Shown: piece by piece, positions 1,599-46,344 of the stretch
Numbering within the stretch: the stretch's first letter is position 1
Layout of the letters: each line of letters starts with the position of its first letter
Sequence record: PZ154897.1
DNA length: 64,000 nucleotides
From: a phage
Reading direction: 5' to 3' (one strand)
Notes under the pieces: generated by a model
What the model was told of the DNA's origin: nothing
Databases searched by the model: none
The model's input: only the letters and a program-made list of their open reading frames with translations
Translations under genes and position numbers: made by a program

Positions 1599-2453
1599 TC
1601 ACAATGAAGAAAATTCTTTAACTAAAGCCTGTAATGAAGCCTCTATTGGATATCCATTCTTAACTAACATTTTCCTAAACATCACATGTTTAGGACGATT
1701 ATATGATATCCACAATTCATACAATTTATCTTTATTATCCCAATGATAGCCTTTTCGTCGAGATGCTATATGAGCTTTTCTAATCTCCGGATTTTTCCAA
1801 CTAGCAGCTACTGAATTTGATATAGCTATTTTATATTCAGGTTTTGATAAAGCAGCGCGAACAGCCCTTTGGTGTTTAATTTTATTTTCTTCGTTATTAA
1901 ACCATTCCCTTGAAGCCATTGAAATTTTTTGTTTTGTTTTAAAATTATTTAATCTTTCTTTGTTATCTTTTCTATTTTTTGCTACTGAAAAATATTTTAA
2001 TGCCCTTTCTCTAGCAGCATTTCTATTTTGCGGATTTGAATAATACTGTTGAAGCCTTTTTGATATTGTGTCACTTACATCTTGTTTTATAAAACTATAT
2101 TCAGCAGCTATTAAATCAACTTCGGCTAAAGATAAATTTTTATATGTTTTTCCTGACATCATTCTATTTAAAGCATTTAGCATTTTTCCATTTTTACCTT
2201 TTGCTAATAAGAAATGTGCTTTGAAATGATTGAAATGACTTAAATTAACTAAATTCCATGTAGATTTTAAATATTCAGGAAATATTGATTTAGGAAGCAC
2301 GTGATGTGCTTCCGTTTTACCTGGAGTTTTAACAGTTGAATTCATAGAAATAAAATTAATGTAAGACTTGGCGTCTTCTTCGCTCAACACTAATTTTTCA
2401 ACTAATTCCTTTATTAAAAATTCATCATTAATATCAAGTTTAAAATTCTTCAC
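1599..2453 (-). CDS. HNH homing endonuclease, free-standing, with NUMOD-like C-terminal repeats
   Basis: 284 aa; HNH motif AHHVLPKS...NLVNLSHFNHFKAH; basic repeat-rich C-terminus; GTG start preceded by SD AAGGAA; lies between gene 46 and the 46.x/47 genes. Confidence 0.7.
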   Translation of the reverse strand: MKNFKLDINDEFLIKELVEKLVLSEEDAKSYINFISMNSTVKTPGKTEAHHVLPKSIFPEYLKSTWNLVNLSHFNHFKAHFLLAKGKNGKMLNALNRMMSGKTYKNLSLAEVDLIAAEYSFIKQDVSDTISKRLQQYYSNPQNRNAARERALKYFSVAKNRKDNKERLNNFKTKQKISMASREWFNNEENKIKHQRAVRAALSKPEYKIAISNSVAASWKNPEIRKAHIASRRKGYHWDNKDKLYELWISYNRPKHVMFRKMLVKNGYPIEASLQALVKEFSSL

Positions 2454-2656: not shown

Positions 2657-2900
2657 AGTATGCATCCTTAATACAAGATACAGCCATATCTTGTAATGAT
2701 TTAGGTGTGTCATTATCTAAAATGTTGAAGTTAAAAGATACAGCCCAGTCAGTGCAGACCGTGACCTTTTTAATACAATTATCTTCAACCTCTAACGGTT
2801 CAAACCAATATTCAATAATTTCTTTATGCCCAATATCATCTTTTACTTCACATTCAAAATGCTGACTCATCATAACATTTTTAAATTCATCAAAAGTCAT
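2637..2900 (-). CDS. Hypothetical protein, 87 aa
   Basis: ORF track; its ATG overlaps the gene 47 stop (ATGA), suggesting translational coupling. Confidence 0.45.
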   Translation of the reverse strand: MTFDEFKNVMMSQHFECEVKDDIGHKEIIEYWFEPLEVEDNCIKKVTVCTDWAVSFNFNILDNDTPKSLQDMAVSCIKDAYCEVFDI

Positions 2901-3916
2901 TGTGTTGCCTCTACATATAACTGATTTGCATATTGAATAAGTGCTTCGCGATCAGAATCAGTGATGTCTGGAATTGCATTAATGTATTCTTCCATCAACG
3001 TCTGAAGAGATTGAACTTCAACTTCTTCGCTATCATCTGACTCGACAGAGTTATCAATCTTTGACACAACTCGTAATGAATGCACAACTTTTTCTAGTTC
3101 AGATTCGAACTTCGTTAGATTTTTGTCTACCTCAGTTACTATAACACGCACTGATAGATTTGTAAAATCTTTATAGTCAATTTTTCCCTTAAATGGATAC
3201 TGAATTCGACGATGCCAGGTAGTGTTGTTTGGAATAAATTCCATTCGTTCTGTTTCTGTATCAAACATCCAGAACCCGCGAGGGTCATTCTCGTCACCTG
3301 CAGTTAGTGTCCATGGTGTCCCAATATATCTGACGTTAGCAGCCTCAGAGATAGTATGGAAGTGACCAGACCACACCTCTTTATAAGTCTTAAGGAAATC
3401 AGGTTCAAGACCGTGAGATTTCATTCCTTTATAAAAATAAAATCCATTCAACTCCCAGTGACCAACACAAAAAGAAGCAGATGAAGTTTTGATGTGTTCA
3501 AGAATTTCACCAGTATTTTCTTCGCACATCCAAGGAATTAAATCAATCAAACATCCGTCAAAATCTACTGTAGTAGGCTTATCATATACTTTAACATTAG
3601 GATATTTAGCCAAAAGCTCAGTAGAGGCATTTGGATGCATTACATTTTTATAGTGGAGATCGTGATTTCCTACAATAGTATGTAATGTGATTCCAACGTC
3701 ATCAAGCATTTGAACTATTTCGCGAGCAAACTCCATAGTTTTATGCGTGATCGCTTTTCGCACATCAAAAATATCACCATATTGAATCCATACAGTAATT
3801 CCGTTTTTCTTAGAATATTCTATCGCTTGCTTAATTCCATCAATTTGAATACCGCGAATCCACTCATCATCAGCTTTAACGCCTAAATGCCAATCACCTA
3901 AATTTAAAATTTTCAT
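2897..3916 (-). CDS. 47: Recombination endonuclease subunit gp47 (Mre11/SbcD-like phosphoesterase)
   Basis: 339 aa; calcineurin-like motifs GDWHLG, GNHD, GHFH; same length as T4 gp47. Confidence 0.92.
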   Translation of the reverse strand: MKILNLGDWHLGVKADDEWIRGIQIDGIKQAIEYSKKNGITVWIQYGDIFDVRKAITHKTMEFAREIVQMLDDVGITLHTIVGNHDLHYKNVMHPNASTELLAKYPNVKVYDKPTTVDFDGCLIDLIPWMCEENTGEILEHIKTSSASFCVGHWELNGFYFYKGMKSHGLEPDFLKTYKEVWSGHFHTISEAANVRYIGTPWTLTAGDENDPRGFWMFDTETERMEFIPNNTTWHRRIQYPFKGKIDYKDFTNLSVRVIVTEVDKNLTKFESELEKVVHSLRVVSKIDNSVESDDSEEVEVQSLQTLMEEYINAIPDITDSDREALIQYANQLYVEATQ

Positions 3917-42370: not shown

Positions 42371-42371
<1 letters not shown>

Positions 42372-43084
42372 TATAGTACCTTTAGTGTATTTTTAATTTT
42401 AGAAAAAAGTTCTTCAAGAGAACCATCGTTTGTAATTACTAAATCGCCATCACGAATTGGCAATCCAGCTTCTGTAATATGTGTATCATTGGATTTTTGA
42501 CCAGGACGAACTACATGAATTACTGTAGCACCCATCGCCCTAGCCGCATCCATTTCATGATCTTGACGAGTATCAGGAACGATATAATAATCATAACCTG
42601 AGTTAAATTTATCAAGATAATCTAAAGCAAATAATTTTACCCAATACATGCGGTCGAAGTTATTAACAATCAAATCCGTACCTAGGGCTTGCATCAGACG
42701 ACGGACTGACCATTGATCTTCAATATTATTTATAACGTCAGCAATCTTGTTAAATGCTACGAAATTAACTGCGTCATCAAAAACAAACACACCTTTAATT
42801 GGGCTTTTACTATTAAGATAGCAAAATGCTTGTTCCATAATCGTGATTACTTCTGATTTAGTCAGATTTAAATTAGTCTCACGATCATAGTCAATTCCTT
42901 CAAACTCTCTACGAGTTAAGCAAGGATAGTCAGTGTTTGCTGCAAATACACCCCATGCATAAGCCAATGCATCTTTAATAGGACCAGCAAGTTGATATTT
43001 AACTGCAGAATAATTATTCATGATAAAATCTGCAGTAGTATCTTTTCCACTACGCTTTACACCACTTAAAAAGATTAGTTTCAT
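42371..43084 (-). CDS. 1: Deoxynucleoside monophosphate kinase gp1
   Basis: 237 aa; P-loop GVKRSGKDT. Confidence 0.9.
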
Positions 43085-43133
43085 ATGTTTCTCCTCAAAT
43101 TTAGTTAAGATTATAACACATGAAACTTAAGCA

Positions 43134-43664
43134 TTAAACTTCTGCTATAATTTTGCCATCTTTTTCTACTTGAAAATACGTATAAGGAATCGTTGCTGTG
43201 CATACTAAAGCTGGGTCTGAATCTTCTGTGTAGCTAAATTCTACTTCAGACAGGTCAGAAACCCAAGGCTTATAAAAGTTTATTGACATCACGATTTCAG
43301 TTTTACTATTATCTAAAATGTAAAGCGTAATGTATTCAGGACCTGTTTTTTGGGCAGTATTTTCGCCTGTAAGATAGTTACTAGTTCCTAGCATCCATTC
43401 ATACATTCCTATCCACGACTTAAGTTCTTCATCAACTATAAATCTCACAATGAGTGGGTCGTACTCAAATGTAACTCCTGGACGTTGTGCTCGGCCCAGT
43501 CCAAACGGCCCAGTCACAGTATCAGTAACAGGTATTCTAATTCCTGGAATAGGAACTGACTGAGCATTTAAAGTAAAAGCAGATGTAGTATTACTATGTG
43601 GTATTGATACTACAAAGTTAGTTGTATTTGCTTGGTTAAAAATTTGTTGCAGAGCTTGCGACAT
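43134..43664 (-). CDS. 3: Tail tube terminator / sheath stabiliser gp3
   Basis: ORF track 43134..43745 trimmed to ATG 43664 (MSQALQQIFNQ, SD GAGGAA), 176 aa. Confidence 0.85.
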   Translation of the reverse strand: MSQALQQIFNQANTTNFVVSIPHSNTTSAFTLNAQSVPIPGIRIPVTDTVTGPFGLGRAQRPGVTFEYDPLIVRFIVDEELKSWIGMYEWMLGTSNYLTGENTAQKTGPEYITLYILDNSKTEIVMSINFYKPWVSDLSEVEFSYTEDSDPALVCTATIPYTYFQVEKDGKIIAEV

Positions 43665-43770
43665 ATATTCCTCATAATGCTTTATAAATGTTGGTGGTAT
43701 AATGGGTCTAAGTCCCTTCCATTCAATTCCAATTAGAACAAACAATAGAAAAGAATGGAAGATAATAGAA

Positions 43771-44430
43771 TTAATTTATTAGACTTCTTAAACGAGCAGA
43801 AGTCATAAATGGAAATTTTTCTAAAGTTGGCTTTCGCCAATATCTTGGATGACAAGTTGATTTAAAATCAAGAACAATTTTCTTTGCTTCATCAATAGTG
43901 CTAACTCCAAAGTTATCTAACATTATTTTCTTTTCTTTTTCCCACCGTTTATTAGCTAAAGCAGATTGAAGCTTTTTGTTTTTAAATGTATCATTTTTTC
44001 TAGAATGAGTTGTGCCTTGTGTCGGACTCCATCCTCTTCCTAAAATAAATCCCTCAGGAATTATATCTCCATCATGCAATTTTATACATCTTTTACCATT
44101 ATTATAATATTTTCGTCCAGTTTGTGTATTTGAAATATTATTTGCATGTTTTCTTTTTAACCAACCATAAACTTTATTATTTCTCCTAACATATTTAGTT
44201 GAAACCGTCATTTTTATGGCCGCATAAGATAATTTTAAAGAATTTGGGTGTATTTTTACTAATAGTTGATGTGCAACATAATGCTCTTCTGGAGTTAAAT
44301 CAACCAAGTTAGAAGCATCATTACTACCGCCTAAACATTTCGGAATAATATGATGTCTTTCTTTATATCCAGTAAGGGCTCTATTGCGAGCCCTATCAAT
44401 TAGTGAATTATAAATTTTTTCATAATTCAT
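43771..44430 (-). CDS. HNH endonuclease (free-standing homing-endonuclease-like) between genes 2 and 3
   Basis: HNH motif [27 protein letters not shown]; ATG 44430 forms an ATGA overlap with the gene 2 stop; ORF track begins 5 codons upstream at TTG. Confidence 0.7.
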
Positions 44431-45254
44431 CGTACATTGCTCCAAACTTTGTTTGCAGAGAAACGTTTTCCTTTGGAGTAGAAGCTTTGGAGTGGCATCA
44501 ACACAACGTTCGCCCAGTCTTTCGGGGCGATTTCAACAAGGCTACCCATAATATTACCAGGTATATATGCCTTAATCATTTGGTCTGCACCCCTAAATCC
44601 TTTCACTTGACTCCAATCAATTTTTAATTTCGTTTTATTAGTAATAGTAGGTGTATTTGAATATTGCTTTAAAAGCTCTTCTAGAAATTGCTGACGAGCT
44701 TTAGGTGGAATATAGTGCAAGTTCAATCCATACATTAAATTATGTTTACCTAAACCGAGGTAAATTATCAAAGGAAATTTATCCCAATAAGGAAGAGTTT
44801 CCTTGTGTTTAGCATCATAAGCAAAAGCATATATTCGTCCCGGCTGCGGGCGAACAACTTTATGTCCTTTTACTTGCTTAATAGTTTCAGCAAACCACTT
44901 TCTGGTTTTATTATTAATTGCTGCGCCTTCATTACGAATTTTATCACGCAATGTTTGTCTGAATGAATTTATCATAAGCAGTTGTCTTTCTTGCTTATTG
45001 AGTTTATTCATTGGTTTTGATTCAAGCTTTTGAATCTTTTCAGCCGTTTTAATTCCTGAAGCATATTTTGACATTGCCGAAGTAAACGTAGAGTATTTGA
45101 TTCCTCTTTCTTCAGCAAATTGCTTTCCTGTCATTCCTTTTGCTTTGGCCTTTTTGTATTCAAGACCTATCTGAATCCATTTCTTTTCATTTAATGATTG
45201 CTTAACCTTTGGAACTTGGGGAGTGCTTTCATTAATTATTTGAAAAATAGCCAT
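44427..45254 (-). CDS. 2: DNA end protector protein gp2
   Basis: 275 aa; position between genes 4 and 3. Confidence 0.85.
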
Positions 45255-45706
45255 TATGCCCCCTTAAAGCCAAGAGCTCTTAATCCATCTTCTGTTAGAA
45301 TTCTAAATTTTATTCCACGCTTTTCAGCTAAAGCCTGCGCTGCTTTCCATTTGTCAGTATTAACAGAATATGTATAAATTTCATTCATAAATCTTTTCTT
45401 CGCTGCAGTTGTTAGATGTGCTGGTTTAACTGGTGGTTGTGTTTCTTTTTTAGGTTTTATTTCAATAAAAAATTCTTGTCCAGAAGAATCTTTCATCCAA
45501 ATATCCATGAAGTATCTACGTTTTTTCCCTTCTGCATTACAAAAATAAGGAATTACTGCTGTTTCACTACCCCATGCAATAATTTCTGGATTTTTATCTA
45601 ACCATTCAAAAAAGAATTTTTCCCAATTTGATCTATACGTAATTTTTTTAGGGTCACCTCTATATTTTGATATATTTTTAGGAACCCATTTTCCAGAATA
45701 TGCCAT
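45254..45706 (-). CDS. 4: Head completion protein gp4
   Basis: 150 aa, [21 protein letters not shown]; SD GGAG. Confidence 0.88.
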
Positions 45707-45717
45707 TGGATTCTCCT

Positions 45718-45725
45718 TATAAATA
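45718..45725 (+). promoter_or_regulatory. Late promoter TATAAATA for gene 53
   Basis: tataaata at 45718-45725, 29 nt upstream of the gene 53 ATG. Confidence 0.55.
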
Positions 45726-45732
45726 GATAATA

Positions 45733-45740
45733 TATTTATA
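45733..45740 (-). promoter_or_regulatory. Late promoter TATAAATA for gene 4
   Basis: Plus-strand tatttata at 45733-45740. Confidence 0.5.
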
Positions 45741-45753
45741 AACAGGAGGGCCC

Positions 45754-46344
45754 ATGCTCTTTACATTTTTTGATCCGATTGAATATGCGGCCAAAACGGT
45801 GAATAAAAACGCGCCGACTATTCCTATGACAGATATTTTTAGAAACTATAAAGACTATTTCAAACGTGCTCTTGCGGGATACCGCTTACGTACTTATTAT
45901 ATTAAAGGTTCACCACGCCCGGAAGAATTAGCAAATGCTATATATGGAAATCCGCAGTTGTATTGGGTTTTATTGATGTGTAATGATAATTATGATCCGT
46001 ATTATGGATGGATTACTTCGCAAGAAGCTGCTTATCAAGCATCTATACAAAAATACAAAAACGTAGGTGGAGACCAAATAGTATATCATGTGAATGAAAA
46101 CGGTGAAAAATTTTATAATTTAATATCATACGATGATAATCCATATGTTTGGTATGACAAAGGCGATAAAGCTAGAAAATATCCTCAATATGAAGGAGCA
46201 CTTGCTGCGGTCGATACGTATGAAGCTGCTGTTCTTGAAAATGAAAAACTTCGTCAAATAAAAATAATAGCAAAATCAGACATCAATTCATTTATGAACG
46301 ACCTTATACGTATAATGGAGAAATCTTATGGAAATGATAAGTAA
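45754..46344 (+). CDS. 53: Baseplate wedge protein gp53
   Basis: 196 aa; SD GGAGGG; first plus-strand late gene. Confidence 0.9.
   Translation: MLFTFFDPIEYAAKTVNKNAPTIPMTDIFRNYKDYFKRALAGYRLRTYYIKGSPRPEELANAIYGNPQLYWVLLMCNDNYDPYYGWITSQEAAYQASIQKYKNVGGDQIVYHVNENGEKFYNLISYDDNPYVWYDKGDKARKYPQYEGALAAVDTYEAAVLENEKLRQIKIIAKSDINSFMNDLIRIMEKSYGNDK

Follow-up and report, generated by a model that had tools for sequence, protein, structure and literature searches.

A probable free-standing HNH homing endonuclease gene at the gene 2 stop codon of a T4-like phage

We describe a 219-codon gene lying between genes 2 and 3 of a T4-like phage and propose that it is a free-standing homing endonuclease gene (HEG) of the Mob-type HNH class, the same gene as ORF146c of phage RB32, inserted exactly at the gene 2 stop codon and spreading in mixed infections through nicking or cutting of the HEG-less junction followed by repair copying. 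From comparative sequence analysis, we put the probability of this reading at roughly 85%. The sporadic presence of the gene, its homology to MobB, its fixed intergenic insertion point, the recoded flank that accompanies it and the existence of altered copies all support the free-standing homing endonuclease interpretation put forward in a preliminary description of this DNA.

Background

Mob genes encode an HNH domain joined to a distinct C-terminal region, and for two of them, MobA and MobE, target nicking and over-inheritance in mixed infections are described (PMC2988022). The gene analyzed here is already annotated as a putative homing endonuclease, both in RB32 (2006) and in RefSeq. The RB32 record of that year describes ORF146c as a 'putative site-specific intron-like DNA endonuclease; similar to mobB; not conserved from T4 position', and the tally for RB32 given by Petrov et al. 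in 2010 lists two 'mob-like HNH' HEGs (PMC2993671), under which the gene 2 HEG falls. A literature search on this gene or locus, including its locus tags, returned no study.

Already annotated, the gene carries little weight as a discovery, and its practical value is modest. The availability of many near-isogenic pairs with and without the HEG makes a cross or a cleavage assay easy to set up, and the location of the HEG inside an essential late operon leads us to expect localized marker exclusion in marker and engineering work around genes 2 and 3. Its conserved attachment to the gene 2 3' end over several genera also makes it a convenient case for asking how long a HEG lineage persists.

Genomic context

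The window, by which we mean the complete 64,000-nt stretch of sequence record PZ154897.1 analyzed here, is part of a T4-like (Tequatrovirus) genome. The block that holds the gene comprises the following features:

42371-43084, minus strand: gene 1, dNMP kinase by Pfam (T4 and RB32 annotations)
43134-43664, minus strand: gene 3, tail completion and sheath stabilizer (Pfam Phage_T4_gp19, E 2e-12; T4 annotation)
43665-43770, minus strand: gene 2-gene 3 spacer, 106 nt (aligned with T4 and RB32)
43771-44430, minus strand: HNH HEG, 219 aa plus TAA (ORF and translation; RB32 annotation; PHROG 655)
44427-45254, minus strand: gene 2, DNA end protector, 275 aa (T4 and RB32 annotations)
45254-45706, minus strand: gene 4 (T4 and RB32 annotations; Pfam TnsA-like N domain)

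Read along the minus strand, the order in the window is gene 4, gene 2, HEG, spacer, gene 3 and gene 1, with genes 53 and 5 on the plus strand, divergent from this block; the N-termini of gene 3 products can be aligned between genera. The preliminary description had reported a 219-aa HNH ORF at 43771-44430, which is indeed present, and to which we add the strand (minus) that it omitted. It had also placed the gene between tail genes 2 and 3; the placement stands, but the designation of gene 2 as a tail gene does not, as the records give it as the DNA end protector.

The reported ATG/stop overlap can be read directly from the sequence: the HEG ATG occupies 44430-44428 and the gene 2 TGA 44429-44427, forming an ATGA junction that appears as TCAT at 44427-44430 of the plus strand. 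The longest ORF call reaches an upstream TTG at 44445. The ATG at 44430 is nevertheless the likely start, because it is preceded at 9 nt by a GGAG and because the ten homologues compared all begin at equivalent M(N/D)Y codons. The HEG has a GC content of 29.7%, against 34.8% for the whole window. It is intergenic, leaving both gene 2 and gene 3 intact, and a search of positions 43000-45800 against Rfam returned nothing, and thus no group I intron.

An HNH nuclease domain shared with MobB

The N-terminal half of the protein contains two nested features:

44122-44430, minus strand: N-terminal nuclease domain, about aa 1-103, common to T4 MobB, MobE and many phage HNH HEGs
44269-44367, minus strand: H-N-H motif, aa 22-54 (Y22 E24 H26 H27 ... 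N41 ... H50 ... H54), from an alignment of 29 sequences

The description of the product as an HNH protein is borne out by an intact motif, in which H26, H27, N41, H50 and H54, together with Y22 and E24, are invariant among the 29 homologues, so that the catalytic histidine, the structural asparagine and the metal-binding histidine of the superfamily are all in place. The protein also matches PHROG 655, 'homing endonuclease', with an E-value of 9e-59. This match and the 2,933 database proteins similar to the HEG product at E ≤ 1e-5 indicate that the ORF is not a chance one.

A profile built from the 29 homologues aligns the motif with the HNH of McrA (E 0.002) and of a group II intron maturase (E 0.01). 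The curated Pfam gathering scores are not reached, with 17.8 bits for HNH_5 (cut-off 27.5) and 16.5 bits for HNH (cut-off 21.4), and the sole NCBIfam match, to IscB HNH, is faint; the Pfam HNH models give poor coverage of this family, which is a divergent HNH branch. No NUMOD was matched by Pfam in the HEG protein, and some more distant homologues bear PF07460 or PF22083. The AF2 model (pLDDT 89.1) predicts strands at residues 24-27 and 42-45 followed by a helix at 47-60, a beta-beta-alpha arrangement at the motif, and for the rest of the protein a beta-hairpin at 107-118 and a helical C-terminal region at 152-218. Searches of PDB structures with the HEG protein gave no significant match.

Residues 1-114 are 45% identical to T4 MobB (E 2e-30), both proteins begin MNY...IYN.LI and both genes are free-standing and intergenic. 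Past that point there is no similarity: the C-terminal half of MobB is unrelated, and mobB lies beside alpha-gt.2, in the alpha-gt region, as opposed to genes 2 and 3. When the whole protein is used as a tblastn query, 1,070 records are matched at 1,704 places, mainly through the N-terminal domain. These N-terminal matches are scattered over loci that include mobB, mobE/nrdA, helicase genes and topoisomerase genes, and they reach mobB and mobE in both T4 and RB6.

Sporadic distribution and the empty site

A megablast search with positions 43000-45300 of the window (2,301 nt) matched 513 phage records. The HEG is present in the 37 records (about 7%) that span the full query and missing from the other 476. 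Apart from two partial matches, the HEG-less records listed are covered at 71% in two pieces, amounting to 1,639-1,642 nt as against 2,301, and the net insert relative to the clean empty site is 659 nt. The gene is found in RB32, RB33, HY03, vB_EcoM_112 and fPS-2, and is absent from T4, T2, RB3 and RB18. Synteny with T4 and relatives hence upholds the claim of an insertion into an otherwise conserved block, the empty site being 659 nt shorter in about 93% of them. The preliminary description had named universal presence together with a structural role as the finding that would speak against it; what we observe is that about 93% of relatives, T4 among them, do without the gene.

The insertion point can be delimited from both sides. 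The spacer is intact 3' of the HEG and begins TTCTATTATC, the same sequence that the gene 2 stop precedes in T4, and TCTATTATC is found after the HEG stop also in Gaprivervirus, Kanagawavirus and Dhakavirus. On the gene 2 side, five HEG-plus alleles (the window, RB32, CT01, Manna and FL23) were compared with five HEG-minus alleles (T4, T2, BF15, ECML-134 and QOTSP) drawn from the 513 records. The empty site is identical in all five of the HEG-minus genomes, and the comparison delimits one further feature:

44435-44490, minus strand: recoded gene 2 3' end, with 14 substitutions in 56 nt, including patch A (44475-44490) and patch B (44435-44445)

These 14 substitutions separate the HEG-plus (5/5) from the HEG-minus (5/5) alleles perfectly, and the C-terminus of gp2 encoded by the HEG-plus allele is altered relative to T4. 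Farther from the HEG the SNPs are mosaic, to the extent that BF15, which has no HEG, carries the spacer and gene 3 alleles of the window.

Comparison of records around QL01 indicates that the sporadic pattern recurs independently in Dhakavirus, where 11 of 85 records have the full length and the remainder are 647-650 nt shorter. The HEG-plus QL01 and the HEG-minus LHE83 are 99.3% identical in their flanks.

The spacer itself carries a non-coding motif, (G/A)ACC(C)ATTATA(C/A)C, at window positions 43696-43707 (minus strand), some 30-70 nt upstream of gene 3, which is kept in Tequatro-, Gapriver-, Lazarus-, Kanagawa-, Winkler- and Dhakavirus. In its place, the spacers of Roskilde-, Gualtar- and Muldoonvirus have a hairpin followed by TTATTACTT...TTATATAGA. 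Judging from position and conservation, both elements are possibly promoter or regulatory elements of gene 3; Rfam gave no hit.

A C-terminal domain that accompanies gene 2

The remainder of the protein is treated here as a separate domain:

43774-44130, minus strand: C-terminal domain, aa 101-219 (tblastn of this half; locus survey)

This domain is presumed to be the target-recognition, DNA-binding part of the protein. Used alone as a tblastn query, the C-terminal 119 aa match 78 phage records at one place each. All nine of the distant full-length homologues fetched, which are 50-63% identical and come from eight genera, lie between gene 2 and gene 3, each following gene 2:

P479, Gaprivervirus: full-length homologue after gene 2, with a TTG start
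Konradin, Lazarusvirus (Acinetobacter host): full-length homologue after gene 2
Kosakonia 305, Kanagawavirus: full-length homologue after gene 2
X20, Winklervirus: full-length homologue after gene 2
Cronus, Roskildevirus: full-length homologue after gene 2
QL01 and dhabil, Dhakavirus: full-length homologues after gene 2
PSTRCR_121, Gualtarvirus: full-length homologue after gene 2
SP1, Muldoonvirus: full-length homologue after gene 2

Across these lineages and the window, ten in all, the HEG start either overlaps the gene 2 stop, by 4 nt or by 1 nt, or is separated from it by 1 nt. The metagenomic homologue P0024, which is 46% identical, shares the 4-nt overlap with a gp2 gene, yet the gene that comes after it is gene 4 instead of gene 3, an order that rules out gene 3 as the constant neighbour of the HEG. 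Since P0024 and the ten lineages all abut gene 2, the fixed partner is the 3' end of gene 2, a pattern to be expected if the C-terminal domain recognizes a site in or next to the conserved gene 2 end. The partial homologues P0051 and P0109 (about 85% coverage) are not beside gene 2, and locus specificity is therefore confined to the full-length relatives. The protein accordingly has the make-up of Mob-type enzymes, with a C-terminal region that is distinct from that of MobB and accompanies the insertion site. Among the ten lineages HEG identity follows gp2 identity (Spearman 0.58, p 3e-5), so the HEG lineage has a long history at this locus.

This long association admits another explanation, the chief rival, in which the gene is an old accessory gene resident beside gene 2 that is passed on vertically and has been lost many times, that no longer homes and that in some lineages may be kept as a weapon against co-infecting phages or for some other nuclease role. 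We regard this as unlikely, although several features are of the kind that such a gene would show: it occupies the same place in at least nine genera, with a divergence correlated to that of gp2, it is set tightly against gene 2 and has no promoter of its own, and its retained catalytic residues, together with a 4:1 ratio of synonymous to non-synonymous changes, suggest selection on the protein. Vertical inheritance with loss sits poorly with the near-isogenic plus/minus pairs, represented by QL01/LHE83 and by the flanking haplotype that the window has in common with BF15, and with the mosaic of SNPs flanking the HEG. Moreover, simple deletion could not turn the HEG-plus end of gene 2 into the HEG-minus one, because the alleles differ by 14 substitutions, a difference from which we infer that they have been exchanged by recombination; and the 7% frequency within the genus is typical of a cycling selfish element. 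A resident gene and a cycling HEG are not fully exclusive explanations.

The P0024 contig (L023:92-2221, Logan SRR13090265) is itself of a divergent T4-like type, with the order gene 2-HEG-gene 4-Y07E-like-Gly_radical-gp6, which departs from the 4-2-3-1 order of T4.

Further HEGs were seen around the same block. In P479 (L003:1033-1680) and Konradin (L004:1018-1668) a second HEG, of the GIY-YIG (seg-like) type and with an N-terminus reading ...YTVYQITNKINNKIYIGVH, lies between gene 4 and gene 2, so that gene 2 is bordered by unrelated HEGs on both sides, and PSTRCR_121 has a further HEG upstream of gene 4. These arrangements suggest that the 4-2-3 block is a hotspot for HEGs.

Altered copies and the integrity of the window copy

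Several copies of the gene are altered. In CT01 an in-frame deletion of 486 nt (44391-43906) removes aa 14-175 and leaves a 57-aa remnant, with the recoded gene 2 end and the ATGA retained. A 1-nt deletion within an A-run at 44251 shifts the frame in FL23 and FL44; a sequencing error is conceivable, yet the deletion is in both records. In the Salmonella phage Manna (L006:135-1430) the T4 gene 2 terminus GTCAAATATCTAA is found at the HEG 3' junction, where the HEG stop is lost and a 432-aa read-through ORF of HEG, spacer and gp3 is annotated. The junction looks like a recombination joint of HEG-plus and HEG-minus alleles at a short homology, the HEG and gene 2 being similar at their 3' ends.

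Such copies in the same clade (CT01, FL23/FL44 and Manna) lend some plausibility to the idea that the window, too, holds an inactive relic, an intact ORF whose product no longer cuts, as in T4 I-TevIII. We consider this very improbable for the window copy, which is full-length and retains all 19 invariant and 21 near-invariant family positions, the H-N-H residues included (the positions being listed from the window sequence itself). It is 99-100% identical to 34 other records, and its differences from the RB32 copy, 5 nt in 660, are mostly synonymous (4 synonymous changes and 1 non-synonymous). A part in morphogenesis or packaging, for instance as an HNH partner to the machinery of packaging or head completion, kept among genes 4, 2 and 3 for its function, would suit a gene inside a late morphogenetic operon, next to the genes for the DNA end protector and the TnsA-like, nuclease-fold gp4, but a structural role is excluded for practical purposes because the gene is absent from T4 and most relatives, T4, T2, RB3, RB18 and about 93% of Tequatrovirus records assembling normally without it, and it is deleted or frameshifted in deposited and presumably viable phage genomes.

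Expression and the recoded end of gene 2

Three elements bear on expression of the gene, the last of them hypothetical:

45733-45740, minus strand: late-promoter consensus TATAAATA upstream of gene 4 (pattern scan)
44440-44443, minus strand: Shine-Dalgarno sequence GGAG, 9 nt before the HEG ATG (from the sequence; T4 has GGTC there)
44440-44492, minus strand: possible hairpin sequestering the ribosome-binding site (MFE and centroid folds)

The TATAAATA at 45733-45740 is the sole copy on the minus strand between 42735 and 46500, and its promoter role is assigned from T4 late promoters generally. Given this single late-promoter consensus, and with no terminator-like site detected in or beside the HEG, the HEG most likely resides on a late 4-2-HEG-3 transcript and is translated in a manner coupled to gene 2. 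Within or just upstream of the HEG there is no TATAAATA that could provide a promoter of its own. Two other candidates were set aside: a MotA-box-like TGCTTTA at 43963 is not accompanied by a convincing -10 element, and sigma-70-like matches are no commoner than in shuffled sequences.

Opposed copies of TATAAATA (window 45718-45740) lie in the 47 nt that separate gene 4 from gene 53, one on the plus strand at 45718 and the minus-strand copy at 45733-45740.

The GGAG arises from a TCA to AGC switch of a serine codon within gene 2. The QL01/LHE83 pair differs at five positions near the junction, among them a TT to GG change, AAGAATTCATAA to AAGAAGGCATAATG, that makes a Shine-Dalgarno sequence. 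Patch A had been considered as a cleavage or immunity site. It has no counterpart in the near-isogenic QL01 and LHE83, and other HEG-plus genera retain T4-like QQF(V/F/M) coding at this position. Given that QL01 and LHE83 show no large change corresponding to patch A, the patch is not to be taken as an immunity determinant.

The folds predict that patch A supplies one arm of the hairpin, CUCCAAAgCUU (44482-44492), pairing with AAGUUUGGAG (44440-44449), which contains the Shine-Dalgarno sequence. The computed energy of the arm duplex is -10.3 kcal/mol for the HEG-plus allele as against -2.8 for the T4 allele, and chimeras that take only patch A or only patch B from the HEG-plus allele yield -4.0 and -4.8 kcal/mol, respectively. 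Shuffled arms paired equally well in 111 of 5,000 trials (about 2%), and gene 2 contains one further site of equal pairing strength. As a conserved feature the hairpin was rejected: folds of the ten lineages give partial pairing of the Shine-Dalgarno sequence in several of them, and no stem at a conserved position.

Taken together, these elements allow a tentative proposal, which we hold to be doubtful rather than probable. The HEG lineage, tied to the last codons of gene 2 in at least nine genera, may have rewritten them for control of its own expression, by way of a Shine-Dalgarno sequence made through the serine codon switch and, in Tequatrovirus, an anti-Shine-Dalgarno hairpin patch. The HEG would then be translated only once the stem has been opened by a ribosome completing gene 2, and the two patches would be regulatory and co-evolved rather than, or besides, conferring target-site immunity.

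Proposed mechanism of homing

The following scheme would account for spread of the gene as a homing endonuclease gene. The HEG would be transcribed as part of a late polycistronic gene 4-2-HEG-3 mRNA from the TATAAATA upstream of gene 4. Its translation would begin from its own GGAG, generated by synonymous recoding in gene 2, and/or by termination-reinitiation at the ATGA, which would keep HEG output low and coupled to gene 2. On co-infection with a HEG-less relative, the C-terminal domain may bind the empty gene 2/spacer junction and the HNH domain may nick or cut nearby, by analogy with MobA, MobE and I-HmuI, and the recombination-dependent repair of T4 would then use the HEG-plus genome as the template for copying in the HEG with a short stretch of its flank. 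The HEG-plus genome could itself be protected by the insertion, which would interrupt the site, and by the recoding of the final 56 nt of gene 2, the link between these changes and protection being a correlation.

Relationship to known systems

RB32 ORF146c (ABI94970.1) and its copies in RB33, HY03, vB_EcoM_112, fPS-2 and other phages are the same gene at the same position, with about 99% protein identity. The ATGA overlap and the recoded gene 2 end are as in the window, there is no material difference, and the window is another isolate of the RB32-type HEG-plus haplotype.

T4 MobE and MobA share with the gene 2 HEG the combination of an HNH domain and a distinct C-terminal region in a free-standing gene, and they serve as the model for the nick-initiated homing proposed here (PMC2988022; PMC2790892). 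They differ in their sites, nrdA/nrdB and 60.1/39, and in their C-terminal domains, and their activity has been shown, whereas the gene 2 HEG is known from sequence. The predicted gene 2 HEG hairpin resembles that at the mobE ribosome-binding site, but the latter has experimental support, according to work cited in PMC2988022, whereas the former is a fold prediction. With I-HmuI of Bacillus phage SPO1, the HEG may have in common the idea of an HNH nickase that is monomeric and has an extended DNA-binding region, a parallel taken from literature cited in PMC2988022 and not from the window data. I-HmuI is, however, intron-encoded, and neither the PDB sequence search nor the structural search detected a match between it and the gene 2 HEG, so that a likeness is not established.

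The window contains a second HNH-type ORF at 1599-2453 (minus strand), of 284 aa and with the motif TEAHHVLPK...NLVNLSHFNHFKAH, situated downstream of gene 47 (2897-3916) and separated from it by two small ORFs. It shares only 32% identity with T4 MobB, across about 100 aa, and 41% with the gene 2 HEG, across 41 aa. It is probably another free-standing HEG.
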